A stretch of 27,653 bases of DNA, from positions 1 through 27,653 of the forward strand of contig JBFYXR010000501.1 in NCBI GenBank assembly GCA_041310455.1. The letters run 5' to 3'. The notes beneath the pieces were generated by a model that searched no databases, was not told the origin of the DNA, and saw only the letters and a program-made list of their open reading frames with translations. Source of the stretch: Desulfobacteraceae bacterium (GTDB lineage: Bacteria; Desulfobacterota; DSM-4660; Desulfatiglandales; HGW-15). Position numbers and translations under genes: made by a program. Positions 64 through 18,930 of the stretch are shown here, in pieces. Every line of letters begins with the position of its first letter. Position 1 is the stretch's first letter.

Positions 64-1539
64 TTATTTCCGGCAACGCTTATATTTTTCCACCTCATCC
101 TTCATCCAGGAGGGCCAGAACGCATAGGCAATGGGATAGCTGGCGTCGAGGGCCTGCAGAGAGCCTTCTCCGGCGACCGACCTGATGATTTCGGCTGAAT
201 TATATCTGACCTCATCTACTCCAACCAGCTTGGCAACGGCCCTGTTGATCTCATCTTCGCTCTTGTCGTAGGGGTTGCCGTTTTTAAAGGCGCGCTGCAC
301 AGCAAGTTCGTTAAGGCACTCAATGCCCCTGTGCCATTCCTTGAAGGAGGGGAAGAACATCGGGCCATAGGATATCCAGAACTCGATATATTTCGCGCCG
401 GCATTATAGACTACCCAGACAGAGCCCCCTTCGCTTACACTTCCCCTTACAATGCTGTCGTCGCCCATGGCGATATTTTTCCCCTTGAGCAGTGAATCAA
501 TACCTCCGAACTTGAGCCCGACCTCTTTTGTCCTTGTCAACCGCTCGCCTTCCTGAAAGGTTCTTACAGCCTGGGGAAGCTTTATTAGTGCAGGGAAAAG
601 GCTTTTCCCGAGCCCTTCGGCAACACCTACTGTCACGCCCCACCCTGATTCAGGGTTCGGGATTACCAGGTCGGCCCTGGAAATCTTATAGTGCTCTGCA
701 AGCTTTTTGCCGAGTTCCCTCCTGATCTGGAATATCTCCTTTCCCCTGTACAGAGAGGCGACATTGCCGAAATACACACCCTGGAAGGTGTCCGGCAGGA
801 TGGCCTCCTCCATGAGCCTCTTTCTTTCAATCCCTTTGGATGAGCATATGGTCATCTCGGCGCCGTCATACTCGCCCTCTATGAAACCGCCGAGCCTCCT
901 GTGTGAACAGGATTCGGAGCTGGCCACGAAGGTCCTGTCGATTACCCCGTAACAGAATGGTTCGAATGCCAATGAATCGTTCAATGTAATAAGGGAGCAT
1001 TCCTTTCCATCATAGATAAGGGCAGTAAGGGCGAATGTAGCTCGTCCCTTGAGCTTGTTGACCAGCCTGTACCCCGCATCAAAAGAAATGCCGTCCTCTT
1101 CAATATACCTATGCAGGAGCGCCCCGATGATCTCCGTTTTATTGCTGGTCTTGATGACATAGCCGTCTTCCAGCTCCGATCTCAGATCCCCTTCCCTCAT
1201 GAGATAGCCGTCAACGGTTAACACGACCTTATACCTGGAATTCTTGACAGGATACACCTCGATCGGCTCGGCATTATATTTTTCCGCCACGGAGCTCTTA
1301 CCATAGCCTATGTTTCCGATCGCTGCTACAGGCTCAAGGTCCTGGAATATGCCGATCAGCCTGTTGTCTATTACCTCTGCGATCCTGCCGAGACCTTTAT
1401 GGATGTAGATACCCTTTTTTGTCCCTATGGCTATCCCCGTGGTGGCCTTGCCGCGGTGCTGACATGCTCCCGTTGCAAGAAATGCCTTTGTTACCAGCTC
1501 CCTGTCTTCAGGACCATAAATCCCTACAATCCCGTCCAT
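64..1539 (-). CDS. purF: Amidophosphoribosyltransferase (PurF)-like protein with degenerate glutaminase domain and no Fe-S cysteines
   Basis: PurF layout: MDGIVG N-terminus (canonical MCGIVG), QHRG, SESC, VYF, PESG, RTF and PRPP loop GDDSIVRG. Cys1 is Asp, GHxRY is GNIGY and HNG is VDG. RBS AGAGGT lies upstream of the ATG. Confidence 0.85.
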   Translation of the reverse strand: MDGIVGIYGPEDRELVTKAFLATGACQHRGKATTGIAIGTKKGIYIHKGLGRIAEVIDNRLIGIFQDLEPVAAIGNIGYGKSSVAEKYNAEPIEVYPVKNSRYKVVLTVDGYLMREGDLRSELEDGYVIKTSNKTEIIGALLHRYIEEDGISFDAGYRLVNKLKGRATFALTALIYDGKECSLITLNDSLAFEPFCYGVIDRTFVASSESCSHRRLGGFIEGEYDGAEMTICSSKGIERKRLMEEAILPDTFQGVYFGNVASLYRGKEIFQIRRELGKKLAEHYKISRADLVIPNPESGWGVTVGVAEGLGKSLFPALIKLPQAVRTFQEGERLTRTKEVGLKFGGIDSLLKGKNIAMGDDSIVRGSVSEGGSVWVVYNAGAKYIEFWISYGPMFFPSFKEWHRGIECLNELAVQRAFKNGNPYDKSEDEINRAVAKLVGVDEVRYNSAEIIRSVAGEGSLQALDASYPIAYAFWPSWMKDEVEKYKRCRK

Positions 1540-1609
1540 GTTGTTACCTCTGCCTAGAATAATGTTTGTATCTGTTATTTTTTGCTTCAGACCTGCAGTA
1601 ACTTCGGCC

Positions 1610-1704
1610 TATAAAGCCCTCAGCTATCAGCATTCAGCTCACAGCTAATTATTGATATTTTTATTTTTTGCTGACTGCTGACTGCTGATCGCTGACAGCT
1701 GATT
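1610..1704. repeat. Inverted heptamer array (NNNCAGC x4, AT-rich spacer, GCTGANN x5), hairpin-forming intergenic element, copy 1
   Basis: TATAAAGC CCTCAGC TATCAGC ATTCAGC TCACAGC ... GCTGACT GCTGACT GCTGATC GCTGACA GCTGATT. It starts at the carB stop codon, and a related copy lies at 17164-17256. Confidence 0.8.
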
Positions 1705-4700
1705 TATTTTATATCCTCATGATAGCTCTGAAGCGACTTCACCTTCCCATGACCCTTGCGGAACGCAGCAATGCCCCTTGAGGCGGCGATGGCAGCGGCC
1801 AGTGTTGTGATGTAGGGAATCTTGTACTTGATGGCCGCCTTGCGTATATATGCATCATCATGCTTGCTCAGCTTGCCGCTCGGCGTATTCACAACCAGGT
1901 TGATCTCTCCGTTCTTTATCCCGTCTACAATATTCGGGCGGCCTTCATGCATCTTGAGAATCAGTTCGGATTCAACCCCGTTCTCGGTGAGAAATCTGTG
2001 GGTACCGTTTGTGGCCTTGATCCTGAAGCCAAGGTTCCTGAACTGCCTGGCAGGCTCCAGGACAGCAGGCCTGTCTCCTTCGCACACAGTCAAAAGCACC
2101 GTTCCACCGGCCGGCAGGACCTGCTGGGCGGCCTCTTCGGCCTTGTAATATGCAAGCCCGAAGGAATCGGCAAGCCCCAGGACCTCGCCCGTTGAACGCA
2201 TCTCAGGCCCGAGTATGGGATCAACCTCAGGGAACATGTTAAATGGAAACACCGCCTCCTTCACCCCGAAATGAGGTATGGTTTTCGGTTTTATATCAAG
2301 TTCGGAGAGCTTCTTCCCCAGCATCATCTGGGTTGCCAGACGCGCCATGGATATGTTGCACACCTTTGACACCAGGGGAACAGTCCTGGATGCCCTGGGA
2401 TTGGCCTCAAGTATGTAGACCGTGTCATTCGCAATGGCATACTGGATGTTCATGAGGCCGACAACATTCAGTTCAATGGCGATTCTCTTGGTGTACTCAT
2501 ATATGGTTTCAACATGCTTTGCGGGTATGCTCACGGGCGGTATCACGCAGGCGGAGTCTCCCGAATGTATCCCTGCCAGTTCGATATGCTCCATAACTGC
2601 CGGAACAAAGGCGTCGGTTCCATCAGCGATGGCATCCGCCTCTGCCTCTATGGCGTTCTCAAGAAATTTGTCTATGAGTATCGGCCTTTCGGGACTTACA
2701 TCCACGGCAGCCGCCACGTAGCGCCTCAGCATTTCCTCGTCGTGTATCACCTCCATGGCCCTTCCCCCGAGCACATAGGAAGGCCTCACCATAAGGGGAT
2801 ACCCTATTGTCCTGGCAACTCCCAGCGCCTCTTCCAGCGTGCTGGCCATGCCTGATTCCGGCTGGGGTATCCCGAGCTTCCTCATCTTGTGCCTGAAACG
2901 GTCCCGGTCTTCGGCAAGGTCTATCATATCAGGAGATGTACCTATGATTTTTACGCCTGCCGCTTCGAGCTCCGCCGCAATATTCAGGGGCGTCTGCCCG
3001 CCGAACTGCACTATCACGCCGTCCGGTTTCTCCTTTTCATAGATGCTCAGCACGTCCTCAACCGTAAGCGGCTCAAAATACAGCTTATCCGATGTGTCAT
3101 AGTCCGTTGACACTGTTTCCGGGTTGCAGTTGACCATTATGGACTCAAATCCCTCGTCCCTGATGGCAAAGGCCGCATGCACGCAGCAGTAGTCGAACTC
3201 TATGCCCTGGCCTATCCTGTTCGGCCCTCCTCCGAGCACCATGATCTTTTTCCTGCTGCTGGTTGAGACCTTGTCCGTAGCGTTGTACGTGGAAAAATAA
3301 TATGCAGCATTCTCAACGCCGCTCACCGGTACCGGCTCCCACCTCTCTGCAACCCCCATGGCTATTCTCTGGTCCCTGATCTTCTTTTCCTGCACATCCA
3401 GGATCTTTGCCAGGTATTTATCGGCAAAACCATCTTTTTTGGCCTGCTCAAGAAGGTCGTTCGGGATCTCCTTCCCCCTGTATTTGAAGATCTTCTTCTC
3501 CAGCTCAACCAGCTCCTTCATCTGTTCGATAAACCATTTCTTTATATGGGTCTTTTCATGAAGGAAGTCCACCTGCGCGCCTTTCTTCAAGGCCTCATAC
3601 ATTATGAACTGGCGCTCGCTCGTTGGCTCAGAAAGCAGCTCAAGAAGCTCTTCAAGGGATTTGTCCTGGAACTTTTTAACAAAGCCGAGCCCATATCTGC
3701 CGTTTTCAAGGGACCTTATCGCCTTCTGAAAGGCCTCCTTGTAATTCTTACCTATGCTCATCACCTCTCCCACGGCACGCATCTGGGTGCCCAGCTTGTC
3801 CTCCGAGCCTTCAAACTTTTCAAAGGCCCATCGGGCGAACTTGACAACCACGTAGTCCCCCCAGGGGATGTACTTCTCAAGCGTACCTTCCCTCCAGTAA
3901 GGTATCTCGTCAAGCGTCATGCCGCCTGCGAGCATGGATGATACCAGGGCTATAGGGAAGCCCGTTGCCTTGGAGGCAAGGGCCGATGATCTTGATGTCC
4001 TAGGATTGATCTCAATAACAACGACCCTGTCGGTCTTGGGGTCATGGGCAAACTGTATGTTGGTCCCGCCTATTACCCTGATGGCCTCCACTATAGAATA
4101 GGAATAATCCTGGAGCTTCTTCTGCAGCTTCGGATCTATGGTCAGCATGGGCGCGGTGCAGTAGGAATCCCCCGTATGTATGCCCATTGCGTCGACGTTT
4201 TCAATAAAGCACACCGTTATCATCTGGTTCTTGGCATCACGGACTACCTCCAGCTCAAGCTCCTCCCATCCAAGTACGGACTCTTCAATAAGGATCTGGC
4301 CGACAAGGCTGGCCGAAATCCCACGGCTTGCTATGGTCCTCAGTTCCTCCACGTTATATACAAGGCCCCCGCCTGTGCCTCCCATTGTATAGGCCGGCCT
4401 TATCACGACCGGGTATCCGAGCTTATCAGCAATCTTTTCAGCCTCTTCAACCGAATAGGCAGGCTCGCTCTTGGGCATGTCGATCCCGAGTTTGGCCATG
4501 GTCTCCTTGAATGCGATGCGGTCCTCGCCCCTCTTGATCGCATCCACTTCAACGCCTATAACCCTGACCCCGAACTCATCCAGAACGCCAGCCTCCGCAA
4601 GTTCAGAGGCCAGATTCAAACCTGTCTGCCCCCCGAGGTTAGGCAGCAGGGCATCAGGGCGCTCCTTTTCAATGATCTCTTTCATGGTCTGAAGGTTAAG

Positions 4701-4904
4701 GGGTTCAATATAGGTAAAGTCCGCCATGCCGGGATCGGTCATGATGGTTGCAGGATTGGAGTTGACAAGAACAATTTCATAGCCCAGTTTCCTAAGGGCC
4801 TTGCATGCCTGGGTCCCCGAATAATCAAATTCGCAGGCCTGGCCGATGACGATTGGTCCTGAACTGATGATCATTACCTTTTTAATGTCTTTGAGTCTGG
4901 GCAT
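1704..4904 (-). CDS. carB: Carbamoyl-phosphate synthase large subunit
   Basis: SGPIVIGQACEFDYSG, NSNPATIMTD, HTGDS, GGGPNRIGQGIEFDYCCVHA, NPETVSTDYD, two ATP-grasp domains and a C-terminal MGS domain; 1066 aa; RBS AAGAGGAG. Confidence 0.98.
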   Translation of the reverse strand: MPRLKDIKKVMIISSGPIVIGQACEFDYSGTQACKALRKLGYEIVLVNSNPATIMTDPGMADFTYIEPLNLQTMKEIIEKERPDALLPNLGGQTGLNLASELAEAGVLDEFGVRVIGVEVDAIKRGEDRIAFKETMAKLGIDMPKSEPAYSVEEAEKIADKLGYPVVIRPAYTMGGTGGGLVYNVEELRTIASRGISASLVGQILIEESVLGWEELELEVVRDAKNQMITVCFIENVDAMGIHTGDSYCTAPMLTIDPKLQKKLQDYSYSIVEAIRVIGGTNIQFAHDPKTDRVVVIEINPRTSRSSALASKATGFPIALVSSMLAGGMTLDEIPYWREGTLEKYIPWGDYVVVKFARWAFEKFEGSEDKLGTQMRAVGEVMSIGKNYKEAFQKAIRSLENGRYGLGFVKKFQDKSLEELLELLSEPTSERQFIMYEALKKGAQVDFLHEKTHIKKWFIEQMKELVELEKKIFKYRGKEIPNDLLEQAKKDGFADKYLAKILDVQEKKIRDQRIAMGVAERWEPVPVSGVENAAYYFSTYNATDKVSTSSRKKIMVLGGGPNRIGQGIEFDYCCVHAAFAIRDEGFESIMVNCNPETVSTDYDTSDKLYFEPLTVEDVLSIYEKEKPDGVIVQFGGQTPLNIAAELEAAGVKIIGTSPDMIDLAEDRDRFRHKMRKLGIPQPESGMASTLEEALGVARTIGYPLMVRPSYVLGGRAMEVIHDEEMLRRYVAAAVDVSPERPILIDKFLENAIEAEADAIADGTDAFVPAVMEHIELAGIHSGDSACVIPPVSIPAKHVETIYEYTKRIAIELNVVGLMNIQYAIANDTVYILEANPRASRTVPLVSKVCNISMARLATQMMLGKKLSELDIKPKTIPHFGVKEAVFPFNMFPEVDPILGPEMRSTGEVLGLADSFGLAYYKAEEAAQQVLPAGGTVLLTVCEGDRPAVLEPARQFRNLGFRIKATNGTHRFLTENGVESELILKMHEGRPNIVDGIKNGEINLVVNTPSGKLSKHDDAYIRKAAIKYKIPYITTLAAAIAASRGIAAFRKGHGKVKSLQSYHEDIK

Positions 4905-4981
4905 AAAAATCTCCTCTTGGAAAACCCTGTCCGGTTTTTATTAGATTTTACGGATGAACCCTCTTCCGGCAAGTTGTGAGG

Positions 4982-5009
4982 TCAGGATATCGGATTCGGG
5001 ATTCAGGAT
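4982..5009. repeat. Short heptamer tandem array (TCAGGAT-like x4) in the carB leader
   Basis: TCAGGAT ATCGGAT TCGGGAT TCAGGAT, read directly. Confidence 0.6.
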
Positions 5010-5039
5010 GAAAACAAATGAACGTTTTTTAGCTGCGCT

Positions 5040-5068
5040 AATATAGTTAAACCCCCTATTAGTGTCAA
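5040..5068 (-). promoter_or_regulatory. sigma70-type promoter for carB
   Basis: Minus strand TTGACA-N17-TATATT, with the -10 box about 135 nt upstream of the carB ATG. Confidence 0.75.
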
Positions 5069-5261: not shown

Positions 5262-5277
5262 TGGCACAAAGGTTGCT
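5262..5277 (+). promoter_or_regulatory. sigma54 (-24/-12) promoter
   Basis: TGGCACAAAGGTTGCT is GG-N10-GC and matches the TGGCAC-N5-TTGCW consensus. It lies upstream of nitrogen genes. Confidence 0.85.
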
Positions 5278-5297: not shown

Positions 5298-5504
5298 GCA
5301 AACCCTGCCGGTTTTGCCAGACTCTTCTTCGGCAAATCCGGCCGGCTGTGGATACAATTTGTTTCTGTTGCCGCAACAATGATCTTTGCTTTTTCCATGA
5401 CTTCTATTATCCTAAAGGCTATCGATCTGTTGACAGGCCCAGGGGTATCAGAGAAGAAAGAAGGAAAAGGCATTGATATCAGCCTCCACAATGAGACCGG
5501 ATAC
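5298..5504 (+). pseudogene. amtB: C-terminal remnant of ammonium transporter Amt (last TM helix and cytoplasmic tail)
   Basis: In-frame translation ANPAGFARLFFGKSGRLWIQFVSVAATMIFAFSMTSIILKAIDLLTGPGVSEKKEGKGIDISLHNETGY matches the Amt C-terminus (NPxG..GLFFG...QL..Q...ILK..D...GLRV.EEE..G.D.S.H.E.GY). There is an in-frame stop at 5280-5282 and no N-terminal portion. It sits directly upstream of glnB. Confidence 0.8.
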
Positions 5505-5545: not shown

Positions 5546-5911
<366 letters not shown>

Positions 5912-5967: not shown

Positions 5968-8670
5968 ATGAATAATCCATCATATCATTTGAATAAGGCC
6001 CTGCACCATAGCCCGGCCGCGCAGCTGGTTTCTGCGGGATCTCCCGTGGAAACGCTAAAGAAGGCCAGAGAGGATCTGGTTGCCGATTTTCTGGAAGGGA
6101 AGGTGTCCTTTTCCTTCCAGGAGGAGTACTCGGAGATCATGGACTATTATTTCCGCATGACTCTCCAGGAAAGCAGAGCAGGGGAAGCGCTTTTCAGGAA
6201 GGGCATACCTTTCGCGCTGGTTGCGGTGGGAGGCTACGGGCGGAATGAACTATGCCTGTATTCGGATATAGACATACTGATCCTCTTCAATAAAAACATA
6301 CCTCCCCAGGCAAAGGCCCTTGCAGAGGAGATATTTTATCCCCTCTGGGATATCGGGATGGAACTGGGTTACGGGGTCCGCACTGTTAAAGACTGCCTCT
6401 CCCTTTCAAAAGACGACTTTGAGGTCCTGACATCCCTTATAGATATACGATTTATATGCGGAGATTCACCTCTGTACCTGAAGCTGGCTGAGGAGTTCCA
6501 GAAAAAGGTTATCAGGAAAAGCGCTTCATCCTTTGTAAAGTGGCTTTATGAACTTAACAAGGTCAGGATGACGACCTTCGGAGACGCGAGCCACCTGCTT
6601 GAACCCAACCTCAAGGAAGGGATAGGAGGGCTGAGGGACTACCATCACATCCTTTGGATGGCAAAGGCCTTTCTGGATGTCAAGGAGCCTGAGGAGCTGG
6701 AGCAGCTCGCAAAATTTTCCCCGGACGAGTACAAGGATCTCAAGGATTGCGTAAGATTTATCCATCTGGTCCGCAATCATCTCCATCAGCTTTCAGGAAG
6801 GAAAAATGACCGCCTGGTTTTCGAATATCAGGAAAAGATTGCCAGGCGCCTTGGTTACAGAAACCAGCCCAAATTTCCGGCAGTCGAACAGTTCCTTGGA
6901 AGGCTTCATTCAGGCATGGAGTCCGTAAAAACCCTGCACAGGTCCTTCCTGTCAATTCATGCACCCCAACGCCGCCGGGATACTGGAAATACGACGGACA
7001 GAGAAGTATCCGGGGGCATTCATATGTCGGACAATGAGTTAAATTTTGCTTCAAACAGCCTTATCATAAATGATCCCTGCATAATGATGGAGATCTTTGA
7101 AGCCGGCTGCCGTCTCGGGCTTCCCCTTTCCCTGGAGGCAAGGAGGCAGGTTAAAAAATTCTCTTACCTCGTTGATGATGATTTCATGCGGTCTCAACGG
7201 GCCTTCAGGGCTTTTCTGAATATCATGAATGACCCCAACACTGTTGACACCCTTGACCAGATGTTTGAAACAGGATTCCTGGACGCCTATATCCCTGAAT
7301 TCGGGGCAATAAGAGACCGGGTGCAGTTTGATGCCTACCATATCTTTCCGGTCGGAAGGCATGTCCTCGAGACAGTGGCAAACCTGAAAAGCCTCCCAAA
7401 GGAAAAGGACCTGTTCCTCTTTGAAACCTTTGCCGACATTAAAAACAGTGAACACCTTTTCCTGGCAGGACTCTTCCATGATATAGGAAAGAGCGGGAAA
7501 GGGCACGCGCGCAGAGGGGCTCAAATAGCGAGAGCCATCCTTGAACGGATGGGATACCCGGAAAATTGGATTGAAGAAATTGCCTTTCATATAACCCATC
7601 ACCTCCTGCTGGCGGAGACCGCCACCCGCAGGGACCTGGACGACGAAAAAATAATCATCCATACAGCCCGGATCATAGGTGACATAGACCGGTTAAAGGC
7701 ATTATATCTTTTGACATGGGCCGATTCAAAGGCCACAGGGCCGAGGGCCTGGAACGAATGGGCAGCCAACCTGGTTCAGGATCTTTTTTTCAAGACGCTG
7801 CATATCCTTGAAAGCGGCGAACTGGCAACGCCCGATTCATCCCAGACGATCAGCAGACTGAAGGCCAGGCTCAGGCGCAGGACGGCTGAAAATATCAGTC
7901 ATGTCGATTTTGAACGTCTCTTCGATCTGATGCCCACCAGATACAAACTCAGTACCGCCTCAGCAGATATCATACGCCACATGGAGATGGTCCTCAGGTT
8001 TAAGGAAGAGGTTTCAAGGGGCGATGCCATACCATTTATCCTGGACGTCAAGGAGGATAAAACAGGCGGATTCTGGCAGGTAAGCTTCGTGGGCAGGGAC
8101 AGGCCGGGGCTTTTTTCCGATATTGCCGGCGTAATGGCCCTGAACAGCATCAATATCCTTTCTTCAAATATATATACATGGAGGAACGGCGATGCCGTTG
8201 ATATCTTCTATGTTACAAAGCCCCTTGACCGGCTTCATCCTCATGCCACATGGGAAAAGGTTGAATCCCTTTTAAAGGGGGCCTTCAGCGGGAAGATCTC
8301 CCTGGCCCAGCGTCTGGCTCAGAAGGCAGAACCTTCCGTGCTGACCGAGGCAGGAAAGCCCAGACACCCTCCCGCGGTGGTTATCGACAACCATTCCTCG
8401 GATTTTTTCACAATTATAGAGGTCTTTGCATCCGACAGGATCGGCCTGCTTTATCTCATAACACACACGCTGTTTGAGCTTGAACTGGATATCCGTATTG
8501 CAAAGATAGGCATGAAAGGAGACCAGACAGCCGACGTCTTCTATGTCCGTGACCTCGAAGGGCAAAAGGTTGAAGATGAGGGGCGGGTCAATGAGATAAA
8601 AAATTCACTTCTCTACCAGCTTTCCGGGGATAAGCAGCCCCTGAGACCCGATCAAATAGCCTCCGGCTGA
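5968..8670 (+). CDS. glnD: [Protein-PII] uridylyltransferase / uridylyl-removing enzyme
   Basis: NT motif AVGGYGRNEL..YSDIDIL, EPNLKEG.GGLRD, HD domain LFHDIGK and two C-terminal ACT domains (DRPGLF, DRIGLL). Adjacent to glnB. Confidence 0.95.
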   Translation: MNNPSYHLNKALHHSPAAQLVSAGSPVETLKKAREDLVADFLEGKVSFSFQEEYSEIMDYYFRMTLQESRAGEALFRKGIPFALVAVGGYGRNELCLYSDIDILILFNKNIPPQAKALAEEIFYPLWDIGMELGYGVRTVKDCLSLSKDDFEVLTSLIDIRFICGDSPLYLKLAEEFQKKVIRKSASSFVKWLYELNKVRMTTFGDASHLLEPNLKEGIGGLRDYHHILWMAKAFLDVKEPEELEQLAKFSPDEYKDLKDCVRFIHLVRNHLHQLSGRKNDRLVFEYQEKIARRLGYRNQPKFPAVEQFLGRLHSGMESVKTLHRSFLSIHAPQRRRDTGNTTDREVSGGIHMSDNELNFASNSLIINDPCIMMEIFEAGCRLGLPLSLEARRQVKKFSYLVDDDFMRSQRAFRAFLNIMNDPNTVDTLDQMFETGFLDAYIPEFGAIRDRVQFDAYHIFPVGRHVLETVANLKSLPKEKDLFLFETFADIKNSEHLFLAGLFHDIGKSGKGHARRGAQIARAILERMGYPENWIEEIAFHITHHLLLAETATRRDLDDEKIIIHTARIIGDIDRLKALYLLTWADSKATGPRAWNEWAANLVQDLFFKTLHILESGELATPDSSQTISRLKARLRRRTAENISHVDFERLFDLMPTRYKLSTASADIIRHMEMVLRFKEEVSRGDAIPFILDVKEDKTGGFWQVSFVGRDRPGLFSDIAGVMALNSINILSSNIYTWRNGDAVDIFYVTKPLDRLHPHATWEKVESLLKGAFSGKISLAQRLAQKAEPSVLTEAGKPRHPPAVVIDNHSSDFFTIIEVFASDRIGLLYLITHTLFELELDIRIAKIGMKGDQTADVFYVRDLEGQKVEDEGRVNEIKNSLLYQLSGDKQPLRPDQIASG

Positions 8671-8961: not shown

Positions 8962-10587
8962 ATGGGAAAAAGAGCAAGGCATGACATTTTTATTAATCTC
9001 AAGCGGTTTCTTCTGGTACTGTCCTTTCTGCTCGTCACAATAGGATGGGCACAGGCCGCCGAACCTGCAAAAATAGGCGGAAATAACGTAAGCGATTACA
9101 TAACATTATATCCTGATAAATTTACCGACAGGGAAAAGGCCCTTGCTGAAAAGTGGATTGCCGACAACAAGGCTATTGAAGCCCGAGGCCCAATTGACAT
9201 AAAGGCCCTTATCAGCGGCAACCTCCCCAAGGACACCCCGGGTGTCATAAGCGGTTCTCTTGCAGTAACAGAGGAAATGATCCGCTATAACAACAATAAG
9301 TATGACCCTGATAATCCCGTCCTGAATGATGCGGCCTATGCCAAAAAGCTGGGCTATGAGAACATCTTCGCCATGCCCACCTTCGCCGCCAATGACGACA
9401 ACATCTTGAAGGCATATCCGGCTGAGGCAAGAGACAAGCTGCTTGTCAGCGATCTCAATCACAGCATCACATATTACAAGCCGATATACCCGGGTGACAC
9501 CCTCTATACCGTTATCAATAAACGGTCCTTTTTAGATGCAACCCCGAAGGAAGGATCTATATTCCGCGCCGTTTGCATTCAGTGCGAGGCCAGTATCTAC
9601 AATCAGAAGGGTGAAAAGGTTAATGACTGCATCTTCCGCGTCACAGAAAATATCGGGATTTTGAAGGAGGGCACGGCAAACGTTTCCGGAGGCATGAATC
9701 CCGCCTGGGTCGGCCCGGCATGGACAAGCCGGCCCATGCATATTTACACCGATGCGGATTATAAATACATCAAGGAACTCTGGTCAAAGGAGAAACGTCA
9801 GGACGGCACGCCCCTTTACTGGGAAGATATAAAGGTAGGCGACGAGCCCACATGGACTGTTGACGGCCCTATCATGGCGACCGCCAATCCCACCAGGCCC
9901 TATGGCCAGGGTATCGGCGGCAGCCGCACCCTGAAAAAAGAGATCATGGACCCCGCGATCTTTAAGACCTTGATCAAAGACGAAAATGGAATCTGGCTCA
10001 CCTCTAATAAAGAGGGTTATATCCCCACCGTGCCTTCCACGGGAGGCCGTGACGGCGCTCCTGCCGGCGCTCCCCCATCAGGCGGACAGGCCGGCGCCCC
10101 TGCTGGAGCTCCCGCATCAGGCGGACAGGCCGGCGCCCCGGCCGCCAGCGGTCCTGCCAGTGACATCGATACAAAAGAGATCCATAAACAGGTCGGTTCA
10201 GAAAGAGCCGCTTTGATCAACTACGTGGGCCGAGACATCGCCATTCGCCATATCAACAACTGGATGGGCGATAAGGGCTGGATCTCTAACATACGCTGGA
10301 GCATCATGGCCCCATCGGCCCTTGCAGCGGTCGGTCTTAAAGTCGCCGCAAACCCTGCTTCAGAGCGTTTCGTTGATCAGGTGCCCAAATTGAAGGCAGC
10401 GAACAAGGTCGTGAATGCCCATGGCCTGACCTATGAGCTGGCTATCGTAAAGTCCTATATCGCCAAGAAATACCAGAAAGGCAACGAATATTTCGTTGAC
10501 CTGATATGGTGGATTGAAAATCTGGATGGTTATATATGGGAAGAGGGCGGCGCAACAGTCAGGCTGCCCTCTAAAAACACAAAGTAA
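8962..10587 (+). CDS. Signal-peptide-bearing double hotdog-fold (MaoC/FAS1-like dehydratase family) protein, paralogue 1
   Basis: N-terminal basic-hydrophobic-AQA signal. Hotdog 1: YDPDNPVLND..YAKKLGY...AMPTF, YKPIYPGDTL, YNQKGEKV. Hotdog 2: YWEDIKVGD, IH...NWMGDKGWI, VDLIWWIENLDG..WEEGGATVRLPS. RBS GGAGG. Confidence 0.7.
   Translation: MGKRARHDIFINLKRFLLVLSFLLVTIGWAQAAEPAKIGGNNVSDYITLYPDKFTDREKALAEKWIADNKAIEARGPIDIKALISGNLPKDTPGVISGSLAVTEEMIRYNNNKYDPDNPVLNDAAYAKKLGYENIFAMPTFAANDDNILKAYPAEARDKLLVSDLNHSITYYKPIYPGDTLYTVINKRSFLDATPKEGSIFRAVCIQCEASIYNQKGEKVNDCIFRVTENIGILKEGTANVSGGMNPAWVGPAWTSRPMHIYTDADYKYIKELWSKEKRQDGTPLYWEDIKVGDEPTWTVDGPIMATANPTRPYGQGIGGSRTLKKEIMDPAIFKTLIKDENGIWLTSNKEGYIPTVPSTGGRDGAPAGAPPSGGQAGAPAGAPASGGQAGAPAASGPASDIDTKEIHKQVGSERAALINYVGRDIAIRHINNWMGDKGWISNIRWSIMAPSALAAVGLKVAANPASERFVDQVPKLKAANKVVNAHGLTYELAIVKSYIAKKYQKGNEYFVDLIWWIENLDGYIWEEGGATVRLPSKNTK
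10054..10143 (+). repeat. In-frame 39-nt tandem repeat (GAPAGAP[P/A]SGGQA x2.3) in an Ala/Gly/Pro linker
   Basis: Units at 10054-10092 and 10093-10131, partial unit at 10132-10143. Absent from paralogue 2, which has a shorter linker. Confidence 0.85.
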
Positions 10588-10787: not shown

Positions 10788-12341
10788 ATGGGAAAAAGCA
10801 TGAGACGTGACATTTTTATCAACTTAAAGCGGGCGATCTTAATAGCTTCGCTTCTGCTCCTCACATTAGGATGGGCTCAGGCCGCCGAACAGGCTAAGGC
10901 GGCCGGCAATGTGGAAAGTGATTTTGTGACATTATATCCCGGCGTGTTCACCGAAAAGGAAAAGGCCTCCGTCGAAAAGTGGATAGCAGAGAACAAGGCC
11001 ATTGAAGAGCGCGGCCAGGTTGACATACAGGCACTAATAAAAGGGACACTACCCAAGGATACACCAGGTGTCGGCGCAAAGCTTGAGGTTACAAGGGAAA
11101 TGATGCTTTACAATTCCAACAAGTATGACCCTGAAAATCCTATCCTCAATGTTGCGGAATATGCAAAAAAGCTGGGTTATAAGGACATCATCGCCTATCC
11201 GACCTTTGCCCCTAACGACGACATAATAATGCCGAAGTATCCATTAAGGGACAAGATGCTTGTCAGTGATCTTAACCACAATATCACCTGTTATAGGCCG
11301 ATCTACCCCGGAGATACTATTTACACCGTTATTAATAAGCGCTACTTTATTGATGCAACCCCACTCGAAGGTGACACATACAGGAGGGTCTGCATTTATT
11401 CCGAGGCCAGCCTCTACAATCAGAATGGTGAAAAGGTTCAAGACGCCATTTTCAGGGTCACAGAGAACATCAGGATGCTGAAGGAAGGCAAAACGGCAAT
11501 CGCTGACGGCGGTCCTATGCCTGCGTGGGAGTCCCCTGCCTGGAAGAATCGTCCAATTCATGTCTATACCGATGCCGACTGGGACAAGATCAAAAAGATA
11601 TGGTCGGAGGAAAAGCGTCAGGGCGCCACACCCCTTTACTGGGAGGATGTGAAGGTTGGCGCCTATACCGGTAAGACTCTGGATGGCCCCATAATGGCCT
11701 CTGTCACCCCGACTGAGCCCTATGGCATGGGCACCGGCGGTAGCCGCACCCTGAAAAAAGAGATCATGGACCCTGCAACCTTCAAAACAATGATAAAGGA
11801 TGAAAACGGAGTCTGGATCACAAAAAACAAGGCTGACTATATTCCGCCTGTGCCTGGCGCCAAGGCCGAAGAAGCTCAGGAGCCCGCTGCCGCTCCTGCC
11901 TCTTCCGGAGGCAATGACATAAACACTGCTGATATCCACAAGTCAACCGGCAGCGACAGGGCGGTCCTGATCAACTACATGGGCCGCGATATGGCCATAC
12001 GCAATATCAACAACTGGATGGGCGATGCGGGCTGGCTTTATAACATCCGCTGGAGCATTATGGCCCCTTCTGCCATGGAGGCAGCCGGCAGAAGAACCAT
12101 ACAGAGTCCGATCACAGAACGCTATGTTCACAGGATCCCCGTACTGGCACAGGCAAACAGGGTCGTCAATGCACACCCCCTCAGTAATGACGTGGGCATA
12201 GTGCAGGCCTATATAGAAAAAAAGTTTGTCCGGAACAACGAATTTTTTGTAGATCTGGTCTGGTGGGTTGAGGATATCGACGGGTATATCTTTGAAGAAG
12301 GCGGAGCGACGGTAAGGCTTCCATCTAAAAACGTGAAGTAA
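10788..12341 (+). CDS. Signal-peptide-bearing double hotdog-fold (MaoC/FAS1-like dehydratase family) protein, paralogue 2
   Basis: Collinear with 8962-10587, with long identical blocks (GGSRTLKKEIMDP, INNWMGD, EEGGATVRLPSKN), the same AQA-A signal cleavage motif and the same GGAGGTCATTTATGGGAAAA start context. Confidence 0.7.
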   Translation: MGKSMRRDIFINLKRAILIASLLLLTLGWAQAAEQAKAAGNVESDFVTLYPGVFTEKEKASVEKWIAENKAIEERGQVDIQALIKGTLPKDTPGVGAKLEVTREMMLYNSNKYDPENPILNVAEYAKKLGYKDIIAYPTFAPNDDIIMPKYPLRDKMLVSDLNHNITCYRPIYPGDTIYTVINKRYFIDATPLEGDTYRRVCIYSEASLYNQNGEKVQDAIFRVTENIRMLKEGKTAIADGGPMPAWESPAWKNRPIHVYTDADWDKIKKIWSEEKRQGATPLYWEDVKVGAYTGKTLDGPIMASVTPTEPYGMGTGGSRTLKKEIMDPATFKTMIKDENGVWITKNKADYIPPVPGAKAEEAQEPAAAPASSGGNDINTADIHKSTGSDRAVLINYMGRDMAIRNINNWMGDAGWLYNIRWSIMAPSAMEAAGRRTIQSPITERYVHRIPVLAQANRVVNAHPLSNDVGIVQAYIEKKFVRNNEFFVDLVWWVEDIDGYIFEEGGATVRLPSKNVK

Positions 12342-13332: not shown

Positions 13333-16300
13333 CTACTGATTGCTTAACAAATATGCCTCATAAAATCCCCTGACCCTTTTAAGGCATTCGTTCAGTTGGT
13401 CCATAAAAAGCTCGGCGTTCGAATCCACACCCAGCATCCTTTTTGACAGTGCGGAAAGCTCATTTCGGTCTCCGGGAATTGCATGCACCTGGCGGTCCTC
13501 AAGGAGCTGGAGATAGTGTTCCGTCCTCCTTAAAAATACATAATCCTTCTTGAGGGTATCAGCCGTCTCATCGGGCAGTATCCCTGCCTCGCACAGTGAT
13601 TCTATGGCAAGCATGGTATTGCCCTCATAGCTGATTCCCCTGTCAGGGCTGTGCATCATCTGGAGCCCCTGCACCATGAACTCCACATCCCTGATCCCGC
13701 CTATCCCTGATTTGATATCCACTTTATCCGTGAGGGGGCCTGCATATGTCTGTATCGCGAGGTTCCTCATCTTTTCAATGGACTCGATAATCAGTCTTCG
13801 ATCCCTTGGTCTTTTTAACAGGGCGTCCAGCTGCTCAAGAAATTCATAGCCCAGACTCAGAGCTCCTGCAACAGGCCTCATCTTTATGGCCGCCTGTATC
13901 TCCCACAGGGATGCTGACTTTTCATAATAATTCATTATCCCCCTGATGCTGTTGACCAGTTCTCCAGAGGTCCCGAAGGGTCTCAGCCGCAGATCCACCC
14001 TGTATGCATAGCCTTCTTCGGTATAGGAAGAGAGGTCCGATATAACCTCCTCCATAAGCCTTGAAAAAAGCTCCTTATTGTCATAGCAGTGCCTGCCGTC
14101 TCCTTTTGAAATACCGGGCATATGAAAGATCCCCAGGAGATCGATATCTGAGCTGTAGTTGAGTTCGTTGCCGCCCATCTTCCCGAAGGCCATGATACAG
14201 AAACAATCGGCAAGCCCCCGGCCCTCAACCTTTTTCCCATCAATTATCCTTTTGAGGCATTCCTCCAGCACTGCCTGTGTCAATGCCTCCGCAAGAGCAG
14301 TCAGCTCCTGCATGATAATCCTGGGAGACACCTTCAGATACATGTCCCTTGTGCCGATCCTCAATATCTCCCGTCGTCTGAACCTGCGGAGCTTGTTTAG
14401 CCATTCCCCGCGGCTCAGGCATGAGCTTGCAGAGGCCCTCAGCTCCTTTTCAAGGTCTTCCCTTCTCCTGATGCGGTGCAGCACCTCCGGTATAATCAGC
14501 CAGTCAAAAAACCCCGGATTCCTGATGAGTGTGTCAGAAAGGAACTGGCTCCCTGAGAATATGCTCAGCAATATCTCCAGATGCATAGGCTGGGATAAAA
14601 GGACATTGTAATGGAACTCCGCATTGCCGAAGGAGTGGATGAAGCGGTCCCAGTTGTTGAGCGCCATATCAGGGTCAGGCATCCTTTTTAACATGTCCCA
14701 TGCAAGAAGGGCTATCCTGGTAAAAAGTTCCCTCCTGCTCCCTTCGCCTGCCAGCCCCTGAAGGTTGATATATGCCCTCCGGGGGTCCCTGAATCCGCCC
14801 TGGGACAGTATCCTGTTTCTAAGATCCTCCGGCATATGCTCGGAAAGGATTACGTCCACAACCGTCCCTGTATCGGGGCCGGGCAATGAGTCACGGCCGA
14901 AATATCTTTCCGCGAAGACCCTGACCATCGCCGTATGGGTTTCAAAATCCAGATACAGCTTCTGTGCCGTATCAAGAGGCCCGCCCCGCGCATAGCCCAT
15001 GCGTCTCGCCAGATGGCCGAATTCATTTGTCCCTGCTGAGGGGAGGAAGAGGTCCCTGGCATTGCCCCTCAGCATCCTGAGTCCGTTTATAAGATTCCTC
15101 AGGAAATTGTATGCCTCCATAAGGCGCATTGAGTCTGCCTCCGACAGGATGCCTGCTTCGCCCAGGACCGCCAGCGCTTCGTGAATGCGTGCAGTCCTTA
15201 GGGCAGGGATCTCCTTCCCATGTATGACCTGCAGGATCTGAACGCCGTATTCAAGATCAACAAGGCCGCCCGGGCTGAATTTAGCGTTGACCTTTCCGGG
15301 AACGCTCTTTTCCCGAAATTGCTTTTCCCTCAGATTTCTTATCTCCGCGATATCTATGTTGTCTGAAAAATATACAAGATCATCCCTTATACGCTCGAGC
15401 TGTCTGCCCAGTTCATAATTCCCACCTATGGCCCTCATGCGGACCAGAGAAAGAAGCTCATAAGCATGGGCCTGTCCGTCTTTTCCATAGTATCCGCAGA
15501 AGGTCTCCAGGCTGCACGCAAGAGGGCCTGATTCTCCGTGTGGCCTCAATCTCAGATCAACCTGAAATATTCCCTCCCTCTTTGATTCGATAAAGAGGTT
15601 GACGCCTTTTGCCAGCAGATTGAAAAACTCGGAATTTTCTATGGGCGATTCGCCGTCAGTCCTGCCGTTGTCGTTATATACAAACATCAGTTCGATGTCC
15701 GAGGCGTACCCCAGGGCGGCGCCTCCGAACTTGCCAAGTCCGAGAACGGCATAAGCGGCGCTGAGGCCTGCAACGGAGGTGGGCCGGCCGTATCGCTTGA
15801 CAAGATCGCTGTACACTGCATCAGCTGCTGAATCAACGACGGCTTCGGCAAGCCCTGTCAGCCTCTCTGCCATGGATTTAATATCCGGCTCATTCTTGAA
15901 GATATGATCCAGATCGATCAGAAAAATTTCCTGATCCTTAAAATTATTGACTGCCTTTTTCCTTTCATCAAACGAAACAGCCCCTTCCACTGCCAGGGCC
16001 AGCTTTTCCCTTACAGCCTCCGGCGAGCTGCTCAGGAGGTGCCCATGACCTTCCGGCCTTAATAATGGAAGCAGAGATTCATATTGAAGCCTGATAAAAT
16101 CCTCCCAGAGGAAATCGCTCGCCCCCAGAAGCCGCGCGAAGTCCTGGAGATTGTCTGAGTCGGCGAGATAGGAAATCCATTTTTCCTTGAATGGCTTCTT
16201 CAGAACATCGTTTAACAGCTGTTCAAACCTCGAGAGGGCTGCGTAGGGATCTGGCGCCTTGACCAGAAAATAGGTGAACTCCTTTGTGAGAAGGACCGAG

Positions 16301-17133
16301 AGCTTTATCCTGTCCAGAATATCCCTGTCCTCAATCTTGTGCCCGCGCAGATCAACAAGATCAATAACGTCTTCAACCCTTCCATGGATTGTCCTTATCC
16401 TCACATGTTCAAGCAGTATATTATGCAGAGAGAGGGCATTGGACAATGAATATAAAAAGGCGGGTGTATCTTCAGAGACTATTTTCAGTCTTGTAAAAGG
16501 GCCTTCATTGCTGATATCGATCTCAACCGGATAAAGGACCGGTTCCGAACCTGACTGGATAATGGAAAGATGATTTACAACCATCTCATTTACGCGGTTC
16601 CTTGCCTCCATGAAGGATTGGTCATCACCCTGTTCCAGCAGGCTGATTACCTCCTCAATATTCCGGCTGAGCTGATCCGCCCAATTTTCAAAATACAGCG
16701 GATTGACAAGGACGCCGGAAAAAAAATCAATAATTTTCCGCCTGCTGACGTCCCTGTAAGGTGAGGATAATGAATGCCTCCTGTTTTTGGAAAACCGGGA
16801 TGGTTCAGCGTCATAGTCGGTTGAATATGTGTAGACATCTCCGGACATTATGTTAAAGCCTGTGCCCGCGAAGATGCCTGTTATCAGGGAAAGTTCGCCG
16901 GGATAATCAAAGGCGAGGACTGTGCATTCAATTTCATCCTCTCTTACCCTGTCGATGATGAGTTCTACCGGGTGATTTGAAGAAAGCCTTGATATGGCGA
17001 CGATATGGCGCCTTACATGGTCTTCGGAAAACCGCTTGAAATAGTCATGGCCCAGCCTGTTATGATGGCCCTTCAAGACCTCTTCATCCATCTCAGGCAT
17101 TGATTTTTTAAGTGACTCAAGATCTGGTTTCAT
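13333..17133 (-). CDS. glnE: Glutamine synthetase adenylyltransferase/deadenylase with extra N-terminal GlnD-like ACT domains
   Basis: Two GlnE NT domains (GLGKFGG..LGYASDIE; AFGKMGGNELNYSSDID), two D(L)RLRP.G.SG motifs, and K...GG..D.E/F motifs. The N-terminal ~290 aa contain ACT motifs (DYPGELS, EDTPAFLY). Downstream of glnA. Confidence 0.9.
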   Translation of the reverse strand: MKPDLESLKKSMPEMDEEVLKGHHNRLGHDYFKRFSEDHVRRHIVAISRLSSNHPVELIIDRVREDEIECTVLAFDYPGELSLITGIFAGTGFNIMSGDVYTYSTDYDAEPSRFSKNRRHSLSSPYRDVSRRKIIDFFSGVLVNPLYFENWADQLSRNIEEVISLLEQGDDQSFMEARNRVNEMVVNHLSIIQSGSEPVLYPVEIDISNEGPFTRLKIVSEDTPAFLYSLSNALSLHNILLEHVRIRTIHGRVEDVIDLVDLRGHKIEDRDILDRIKLSVLLTKEFTYFLVKAPDPYAALSRFEQLLNDVLKKPFKEKWISYLADSDNLQDFARLLGASDFLWEDFIRLQYESLLPLLRPEGHGHLLSSSPEAVREKLALAVEGAVSFDERKKAVNNFKDQEIFLIDLDHIFKNEPDIKSMAERLTGLAEAVVDSAADAVYSDLVKRYGRPTSVAGLSAAYAVLGLGKFGGAALGYASDIELMFVYNDNGRTDGESPIENSEFFNLLAKGVNLFIESKREGIFQVDLRLRPHGESGPLACSLETFCGYYGKDGQAHAYELLSLVRMRAIGGNYELGRQLERIRDDLVYFSDNIDIAEIRNLREKQFREKSVPGKVNAKFSPGGLVDLEYGVQILQVIHGKEIPALRTARIHEALAVLGEAGILSEADSMRLMEAYNFLRNLINGLRMLRGNARDLFLPSAGTNEFGHLARRMGYARGGPLDTAQKLYLDFETHTAMVRVFAERYFGRDSLPGPDTGTVVDVILSEHMPEDLRNRILSQGGFRDPRRAYINLQGLAGEGSRRELFTRIALLAWDMLKRMPDPDMALNNWDRFIHSFGNAEFHYNVLLSQPMHLEILLSIFSGSQFLSDTLIRNPGFFDWLIIPEVLHRIRRREDLEKELRASASSCLSRGEWLNKLRRFRRREILRIGTRDMYLKVSPRIIMQELTALAEALTQAVLEECLKRIIDGKKVEGRGLADCFCIMAFGKMGGNELNYSSDIDLLGIFHMPGISKGDGRHCYDNKELFSRLMEEVISDLSSYTEEGYAYRVDLRLRPFGTSGELVNSIRGIMNYYEKSASLWEIQAAIKMRPVAGALSLGYEFLEQLDALLKRPRDRRLIIESIEKMRNLAIQTYAGPLTDKVDIKSGIGGIRDVEFMVQGLQMMHSPDRGISYEGNTMLAIESLCEAGILPDETADTLKKDYVFLRRTEHYLQLLEDRQVHAIPGDRNELSALSKRMLGVDSNAELFMDQLNECLKRVRGFYEAYLLSNQ

Positions 17134-18914: not shown

Positions 18915-18930
18915 AGCAACAGCCATGCCA
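18915..18930 (-). promoter_or_regulatory. sigma54 (-24/-12) promoter of glnA
   Basis: Minus strand TGGCATGGCTGTTGCT (GG-N10-GC). It shares the TTGCTATT ending with the glnB-region promoter. Confidence 0.85.

Follow-up and report, generated by a model that had tools for sequence, protein, structure and literature searches.

A Cys-less PurF paralogue encoded beside a carA-less carB in a Desulfobacteraceae bacterium: a candidate ammonia-dependent phosphoribosylamine synthase

The purF' gene and its altered glutamine pocket

The DNA analysed here, referred to as the window, is a stretch of 27,653 nucleotides from a Desulfobacteraceae bacterium (assembly GCA_041310455.1, contig JBFYXR010000501.1) that carries near its left end a gene for a PurF-like protein lacking the N-terminal cysteine. 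This gene, purF' (64..1539, minus strand), was identified from the translation of its open reading frame (ORF) and from profile and structure matches, and encodes 491 amino acids; the window ends 63 nt past its stop codon. Directly upstream on the same strand lies carB' (1704..4904, minus strand), a full-length gene (1066 aa) for a divergent subtype of the large subunit of carbamoyl-phosphate synthase (CPS), with no carA adjacent. In PurF', an N-terminal nucleophile (Ntn)-like domain (aa 1-235) is followed by a type I phosphoribosyltransferase (PRTase) domain (aa 236-400), and the C-terminal region (aa 401-491) is conserved.

The product begins MDGIVGIYG. Codon 2 (1534..1536, minus strand) is GAC, which places an aspartate at the position of the Ntn nucleophile Cys1 and is two base changes away from TGC. 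An earlier note on this DNA, made from the sequence alone, had held that no single-base error accounts for this codon, and the family speaks against a sequencing error: Asp2 is invariant, and all full-length members share the MDG start apart from one that begins MDR. A Shine-Dalgarno sequence, AGAGG, precedes the ATG by 7 nt and, because the frame is closed by a TAG 15 nt upstream of this start codon, no longer form of the protein can supply a cysteine.

Profile and structure comparisons were used to place the protein. Pfam assigned only a class II amidotransferase domain (GATase_7/6), and the score on the NCBIfam purF model TIGR01134 was 125.5 bits against a cut-off of 350, below the level of an equivalog. 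The top solved relatives were the B. subtilis PurF structures 1GPH and 1AO0 (E 2e-32, aligned over residues 3-399). When the AlphaFold model (predicted local distance difference test, pLDDT, 74) was searched with Foldseek, all top matches were PurF (E 5e-29 to 3e-22). Together with the 1GPH alignment, this assigns PurF' the two-domain PurF fold of an Ntn-type domain joined to a type I PRTase.

Active-site residues were compared in an alignment of 121 family members with 40 canonical PurFs, in which the canonical residues carry E. coli/B. subtilis numbering. Nine glutaminase-site residues are exchanged in PurF': Cys1 for Asp2, a histidine for Asn76, Arg73 for Gly78, Thr76 for Lys81, a glutamine for Glu91, Asn101 for Asp110, Asp127 for Lys134, and two arginines for Asn187 and Glu193. 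The corresponding motifs read GNIGYG (75-80), LTVDGYL (108-112) and LNDSLAFEP (186-194). Asp110, encoded at 1210..1212 (minus strand), occupies the position of the oxyanion-hole residue Asn101, and is a hallmark of nearly all Cys-less PurF-like proteins. All four cysteine ligands of the Fe-S cluster are likewise replaced, by Asp250, Ser398, Ser460 and Ala463, in the segments DTFQGVYF, PSFKEW and QALDASYP. The alignment therefore confirmed every motif loss that the earlier note had listed (GNIGY, VDG, NDSLAFEP and the Fe-S cysteines). What remains of the glutaminase site is Arg29-Gly30 of the HRG motif, Tyr79 (Tyr74) and Gly111 (Gly102).

The PRTase domain presents the opposite picture. The RTF motif (326-328) and the loop that binds phosphoribosyl pyrophosphate (PRPP), DDSIVRG (aa 360-366; 442..462, minus strand), are intact, as the earlier note had also reported along with the full-length ORF and its ribosome-binding site. 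Retained residues comprise Arg326, Phe328, Arg336, Lys343, Asp360, Asp361, Ser362, Val364, Arg365 and Gly366, and the segment GDDSIVRGSVS (aa 359-369) together with R326, F328, R336 and K343 is 100% conserved in the family and the same as in canonical PurF. Both features that define a type I PRTase, the PRPP-binding loop and the flexible loop that binds pyrophosphate, are thus present. Changes were found at the interdomain channel and next to the PRPP loop, where Ile335 is replaced by Gln329 and a threonine by Val368; the exchanges Ile335 to Gln, Pro to Gly and Thr to Val are fixed in the family.

Compared with PurF of B. subtilis, the [4Fe-4S] type described by TIGR01134 and 1AO0/1GPH, PurF' shares the two-domain architecture, HRG, Tyr74, Gly102, the RTF/R/K flexible loop and DDSxVRG, but is only about 26% identical and lacks Cys1, Arg73, Thr76, Asn101, Asp127, the arginines of RDxxGxRP and the Fe-S cysteines, with Gln in place of Ile335. 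The nucleophile is missing, and of the oxyanion hole (Asn101-Gly102) and the glutamine-binding residues only Gly102 and Tyr74 are left. Judged from these residues, PurF' is unable to use glutamine by the known mechanism, and glutamine-dependent synthesis of phosphoribosylamine (PRA) is predicted to be absent. Since Cys1, the oxyanion asparagine and the glutamine ligands Arg73 and Asp127 are gone and the model cut-off is not reached, the protein should not carry the annotation EC 2.4.2.14.

The MDG family and its linkage to carB'

A word-indexed search recovered more than 120 protein clusters at 73-91% identity to PurF', from metagenomes and from metagenome-assembled genomes (MAGs) of Thermodesulfobacteriota/'Deltaproteobacteria'. 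In a scan of one genome per species the MDG gene was found in at least 135 species, and the 80 best matches all come from MAGs with the label Desulfatiglandales, Desulfobacteraceae or similar; a scan of JGI metagenomes added a further 202 contigs. Two contigs from MAGs labelled Woesearchaeota and Nanoarchaeota (L081 and L082) also carry MDG genes, 70-71% identical to that of the window; these are probably Desulfobacterota contaminants introduced by binning.

Selection was estimated by the Nei-Gojobori method. Across 272 family pairs with unsaturated dS, the ratio of nonsynonymous to synonymous substitution rates (dN/dS) lay at 0.04-0.12 (median 0.09), with 0.19 as the highest value, and between the window gene and its closest genome relative it was 0.05. 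The proportion of nonsynonymous differences (pN) was 0.18 in the Ntn-like domain, 0.12 in the PRTase domain and 0.18 in the C-terminal region, at a synonymous proportion (pS) of about 0.8. Strong purifying selection acts on the family and constrains each of its three domains. The signs of decay that the earlier note had allowed for, a cysteine at residue 2 in close relatives and a dN/dS near 1, did not appear; residue 2 is Asp in the relatives.

The replacement residues themselves are conserved: D2, N76, G78, K81, E91, D110, N187 and E193 are invariant in the 121-member set, and K134 is present in 98%. Because these residues are invariant and their domain is under purifying selection, the N-terminal domain appears to have been rebuilt for some purpose. 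The claim of a dead glutaminase domain thus holds as far as the loss of the residues that bind or split glutamine goes, but the domain is not simply dead; by the pattern of its residues, the glutamine pocket is one that was rebuilt and then frozen, not abandoned.

Contigs from a DNA run differed from the window by 4 letters in 4,748 bases, and wetland metatranscriptome contigs were identical to it at 1477-1625 (the start of purF' and the spacer), 4085-4398 (carB') and 4889-5039 (the carB' leader).

An exhaustive HMMER search against 50%-identity representatives gave full-length matches at 60%, 49%, 38%, 38% and 30% identity, with canonical PurFs appearing at about 30% after a sharp fall-off. 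In a tree of 140 sequences, a check that the earlier note had proposed, the MDG family was nested in a deep Cys-less clade, apart from all Cys-type PurFs. It is therefore a Cys-less PurF paralogue, without the N-terminal cysteine and clustering separately from true PurF. Position 1 in this clade is Ser, Ala, Gly, Pro, Leu, Lys or Asp, and the Ile335 to Gln and Thr to Val exchanges are common to it. Replacement of Asn101 by Asp was found in 23 of 25 non-Cys proteins and in none of 95 Cys proteins. Four Ser-type proteins among those with Asp are scattered within the canonical clade, so the coupling between loss of Cys1 and Asn101 to Asp seems, from the tree, to have arisen more than once.

The gene neighbourhoods of the Cys-less relatives vary. 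The closest outgroups of the MDG family (38-49% identity) lie on archaeal contigs: Asp- and Lys-type relatives adjoin an SMC-like gene and CTP synthase, and an Asp-type relative is divergent to carA-carB-pyrB-pyrD. On one archaeal contig a LAGLIDADG-type ORF was seen between carA and carB (L084:5587-6717). A distant Ala-type relative lies directly upstream of purD, whose enzyme consumes PRA; this purD is interrupted by an intein (Hint_2; L092:8436-10745). A Ser-type relative (L091) is part of the block carB-guaA(PPase)-purL-hisF-purF'-glmS-DUF1846, in which purF' is two genes from DUF1846. This block was considered as a glutaminase-free island and rejected, as its glmS encodes a normal Cys1 enzyme; moreover, the glutaminases that serve guaA-PPase, purL and hisF are often encoded by separate genes.

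Cys-less PurF paralogues have been described before in Crenarchaeota, where they form a cluster beside true PurF (Brown et al. 2011, Biol Direct 6:63, PMC3261824); the authors proposed, as a hypothesis, that they act as ammonia-dependent PRPP aminotransferases. The MDG family resembles these proteins in being a PurF paralogue that lacks the N-terminal cysteine and clusters apart from true PurF; coexistence with a canonical purF is seen in seven relatives. At position 1 the crenarchaeal proteins carry Ala or Val, and their genes belong to purine gene clusters (PMC3261824), whereas the MDG family is bacterial (Thermodesulfobacteriota), has Asp, and lies beside carB' and nitrogen-regulation genes; the likeness drawn here is one of features. 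A literature search for a Cys-less PurF linked to carB found only this paper and a preprint on PyrJ (see below), and no description of such a module.

For the survey of gene context, 158 non-redundant MDG loci were pooled, 92 of which had enough upstream sequence for carB' to be judged. CarB' at 80-93% identity to that of the window was encoded directly upstream of purF' in 57 of the 92, with eight more partial cases, and carA was never adjacent to carB' in the pooled loci. The linkage to carB, whose conservation the earlier note had suggested checking, is thus frequent but not universal. Complete Desulfatiglandales chromosomes with the carB'-purF' pair are among the records (OY759599.1, OY762721.1 and CAXXJJ010000001.1). 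In the window, carB' scores 1512 bits on NF003671. The spacer between the two genes (1540..1703, minus strand) measures 164 nt, compared with 11-26 nt in most relatives, and is covered in part by the RNA contig at 1477-1625. A heptamer-array hairpin built of CTGACTG/CAGC repeats (1610-1704) inflates it to this length.

Seven loci carry carA-carB-purF, then a NifA-like activator and then a solitary purF' on the same contig, so that purF' coexists there with a canonical purF. Relatives with the canonical operon on the purF' contig include L043, L023, L149, L155 and L162. The canonical purF of L043 scored 526.8 bits on TIGR01134 and contains ECGIFG, HRGQ and HNG. When the carA-linked CarB was compared with CarB', using L023, L043, L149, L155, L162, L164 and L084, the two were 52% identical, whereas the PurF' proteins of the two arrangements were 72-75% identical; the housekeeping CarB thus has a paralogue, not an orthologue, in CarB'. 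In a comparison with E. coli CarB, the scores were 1154 bits for CarB' and 1376 bits for the carA-linked CarB of relatives. Fixed differences from canonical CarB show a three-fold enrichment in residues 1-553 of CarB' (29 of 169 columns, against 9 of 143; p = 0.005), the half on which CarA docks in E. coli CPS. A cluster of substitutions was noted at 254-265 (Q254L, E260L, Y261Q, R265Q), as were small deletions at about 421, 481 and 534. As relatives carry canonical carA-carB-purF on the same contig as purF', the pair carB'-purF' has the look of a shadow copy of that operon without the glutaminases.

One relative extends the pair. On a 2.8-Mb Desulfatiglandales contig (L012), carB' and purF' are followed in one operon by a DUF1846 gene, pyrJ (557 bits); its PurF' is 78% identical to that of the window. 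L012 was the only one of the 158 loci with pyrJ, and the window closes too soon after purF' (63 nt) to display a gene at that place. PyrJ (DUF1846/UPF0371; S. pneumoniae Spd_0310) has been purified and converts UTP to CTP with ammonia, not glutamine (bioRxiv 10.1101/2024.09.24.614635). It is a functional analogue of what is proposed here for PurF', an enzyme dedicated to ammonia that takes the place of a glutamine amidotransferase in nucleotide synthesis, and it is found with purF' in L012 and near the Ser-type purF' in L091. It differs in having an unrelated fold and origin and in an activity that is experimental, and none is visible in the window.

Proposed ammonia-dependent function and its alternatives

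In textbook nucleotide synthesis nitrogen comes from glutamine by way of amidotransferases. The comparisons give an even chance that purF' encodes a functional, glutaminase-free PurF paralogue acting as an ammonia-dependent PRA synthase in a glutamine-independent nucleotide module. This was one of three readings offered by the earlier note and is the one that context favours, since the gene pair mirrors carA-carB-purF, pyrJ lies in the L012 operon, a Cys-less relative is beside purD, and the neighbours serve ammonium assimilation. The recurrent neighbours of purF' in the 158 loci were a NifA-like GAF/sigma-54 activator (15 loci), GlnK (13), GlnD (12), a stand-alone glutamate-synthase flavin mononucleotide (FMN) domain of the GltB type (PF01645; 12), AmtB (11) and glutamate dehydrogenase (6).

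In the proposed mechanism, PRPP and free ammonia would be the substrates from which PurF' forms 5-phosphoribosylamine. With carboxylates introduced as Asp2, Glu91 and Asp110 and with Arg73 gone, the glutamine pocket would have become a site for capture and deprotonation of NH4+, from which NH3 would travel through the former interdomain channel and reach C1 of PRPP. CarB', which would form carbamoyl phosphate from ammonia, and PurF', joined by PyrJ in some relatives, could then constitute a glutamine-independent route of nitrogen into nucleotides. Such a route would save the ATP that glutamine synthetase consumes and would suit anaerobes that are short of energy and live in ammonium-rich sediment. 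The canonical glutamine-dependent set, carA-carB-purF, would operate alongside it, with pyrJ likewise a shadow of pyrG. More tentatively, and at somewhat less than even probability, the former glutaminase pocket may be a purpose-built ammonium-capture site marked by Asp at the Asn101 position, as found in nearly every PurF-like lineage that lost Cys1, with PurF', CarB' and, where present, PyrJ as a dedicated parallel entry into purines, pyrimidines/arginine and CTP.

The scheme has precedents. Isolated CarB makes carbamoyl phosphate from NH3, and vertebrate CPS1 works on free ammonia, the glutaminase domain that it still carries being catalytically dead. CPS1 is thus a precedent for losing the glutaminase and keeping the synthase; its glutaminase has the class I fold and, though dead, forms one polypeptide with the synthase, whereas CarB' has no small-subunit gene nearby. 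For PurF, the E. coli Cys1 mutants C1A and C1S, as cited in PMC3261824, lose glutamine activity and keep NH3-dependent PRA synthesis. As PurF Cys1 mutants retain this activity and CarB alone uses NH3, the proposed chemistry would be feasible on a PurF scaffold, although the mutants are laboratory point mutants with an otherwise intact pocket, while in PurF' the whole pocket is rebuilt and frozen by selection.

Several observations weigh against an ammonia-dependent PRA synthase. Of the 92 informative loci, 35 are without carB'. All 158 MDG loci are free of purD, purL and other purine genes to a distance of 10 kb, and tblastn searches for purD, purL, guaA, hisF, pyrB and glmS around MDG genes returned essentially nothing; clustering with purine genes is thus absent from the MDG family and confined to the distant Ala-type relative beside purD. 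The closest outgroups keep pyrimidine, not purine, company. An ammonium funnel has no obvious need for the invariant Gln at channel position Ile335, or for Lys81 and Lys134 in the pocket. Finally, the AlphaFold model has only moderate confidence, and metatranscriptome RNA contigs can include DNA carry-over.

The best surviving alternative, which we consider unlikely, is that PurF' is a PRTase or amidotransferase with another nitrogen donor or acceptor. The rebuilt pocket might bind or hydrolyse another amide, or a carbamate or carbamoyl compound from CarB', and feed it to the PRTase site; or the PRTase site might pass the phosphoribosyl group to a nucleophile other than ammonia. Exchange of nine pocket residues for a nearly invariant set that includes two lysines and three carboxylates would fit this, as would the fixed channel changes, the tight and possibly translationally coupled linkage to CarB' and the pyrimidine genes beside distant relatives. 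An initiator Met before Asp is not expected to be removed by methionine aminopeptidase, and Asp2 would therefore stay behind it, which makes hydrolysis of the Ntn type implausible. The context indicates no candidate substrate, and the purD and pyrJ contexts are more simply explained by ammonia.

Somewhat less probable still is a non-catalytic pseudoenzyme that senses PRPP or nucleotides and regulates CarB' or nitrogen metabolism, by analogy with PyrR. PyrR is a regulator with the PRTase fold, PurF binds AMP and GMP at feedback sites, and CPS is under allosteric control by PRPP and nucleotides in Bacillus and in animals. Distant subfamilies, too, are repeatedly linked to CPS genes, and conserved PRPP-binding residues would be needed for sensing just as for catalysis. 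A regulator of CarB' is harder to reconcile with the loci that lack carB' and with the seven in which purF' stands alone near a canonical operon. Sensing would also leave unexplained why the whole flexible loop and the catalytic Asp-Asp pair are invariant, and relatives adjoin purD.

We regard it as very unlikely that PurF' is a substitute for CarA which docks on CarB' and delivers or gates ammonia for carbamoyl phosphate synthesis. The constant absence of carA next to carB', the short gap between carB' and purF' in most loci and the enrichment of fixed CarB' differences in residues 1-553 would agree with such a role. PurF' is unrelated in fold to CarA, however, an intact PRTase site would be left without a role, many loci have no carB', and carA may be encoded elsewhere. 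That purF' is a decaying pseudogene, a sequencing or annotation artefact or the product of an alternative start is ruled out by the intact ORF with its ribosome-binding site, the breadth of the family across clusters, species and metagenomes, the low dN/dS, the near-identical DNA contigs and the RNA contigs that match parts of the window exactly, with nothing in its favour beyond the loss of catalytic residues.

The idea that Cys-less PurF paralogues use ammonia dates from 2011, when it was put forward for archaeal PurF', and the present work extends it and is not a new principle. New elements are a bacterial clade with the MDG start, the operon that joins its gene to a carA-less carB paralogue (in one relative also to pyrJ), the Asn101 to Asp rule, and a sigma-70-type promoter next to sigma-54-controlled nitrogen genes. 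If PurF' is an ammonia-dependent PRA synthase, many uncultivated anaerobes would, whenever ammonium is abundant, use a cheaper route for nitrogen that saves the ATP of glutamine synthetase, with PurF' serving purines, CarB' carbamoyl phosphate and PyrJ CTP. A large family whose members now bear the name 'amidophosphoribosyltransferase' or 'hypothetical protein' would gain a function, and metabolic reconstructions that count MDG genes as glutamine-dependent purF would be corrected. The switch from Asn101 to Asp with loss of Cys1 would offer a testable structure-function rule for the conversion of a class II amidotransferase into an ammonia enzyme.

Nitrogen genes and promoters around purF'

Upstream of carB', a sigma-70-like promoter, TTGACA-17-TATATT, was located at 5040..5068 (minus strand) as a consensus match only (11 of 12 positions), and the RNA contig 4889-5039 ends just downstream of it. 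The divergent unit, (amtB remnant)-glnK-glnD, begins with a sigma-54 promoter, TGGCAC-N5-TTGC (5262..5277, plus strand). It is followed on the plus strand by the amtB remnant (5301..5504), glnK/glnB for a PII protein (5573..5911) and glnD for the PII uridylyltransferase (5968..8670), and glnE and glnA lie 8-14 kb further along the window.

Scans for sigma-54 promoters before carB' or purF' in 70 loci found none. Nor was one found before purF' in the nine loci with an adjoining NifA-like activator, where a conserved CTTGACA box is present. Control of carB' or purF' by NtrC or NifA is thus unsupported, and both promoters look sigma-70-like, not sigma-54-like. The NifA-like GAF/sigma-54 activator of L043 (L043:7962-9770) scored 511 bits on TIGR01817, for which the cut-off is 529. 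Its position between canonical carA-carB-purF and purF' recurs in L043, L023, L054, L136, L149, L155, L162, L124 and L158. A scan of the whole window with Rfam gave no riboswitch or other RNA family.

The amtB remnant consists of the last 68 codons only, standing behind an intact sigma-54 promoter and ahead of glnK; it shares 53% identity with the AmtB of a relative (residues 337-404), and relatives have a full amtB at that place. The stand-alone FMN-domain protein that recurs next to carB'/purF' (L003:16881-18464, L033:4716-6347 and 10 other loci) measures about 530-580 aa, with a Cys-rich N-terminus and no amidotransferase domain, and is another synthase part without its glutaminase.

GlnE (13333-17133, minus strand; 1266 aa) has an N-terminal extension of about 280 aa that resembles the C-terminal ACT region of GlnD (NCBIfam GlnD models, residues 6-279). 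A sigma-54 promoter of glnA lies at 18930 (minus strand), with the pattern TGGCA-N6-TTGCT as at 5262 (plus strand). Between glnD and glnE, 8962-10587 and 10788-12341 (plus strand) encode tandem paralogues of 541 and 517 aa that are 62% identical (tblastn). Both begin with a signal-peptide-like segment and contain a low-complexity linker of Ala, Pro and Gly; no NCBIfam match was obtained for the 541-aa protein, and a homologue at 65% identity occupies the same place in L094.

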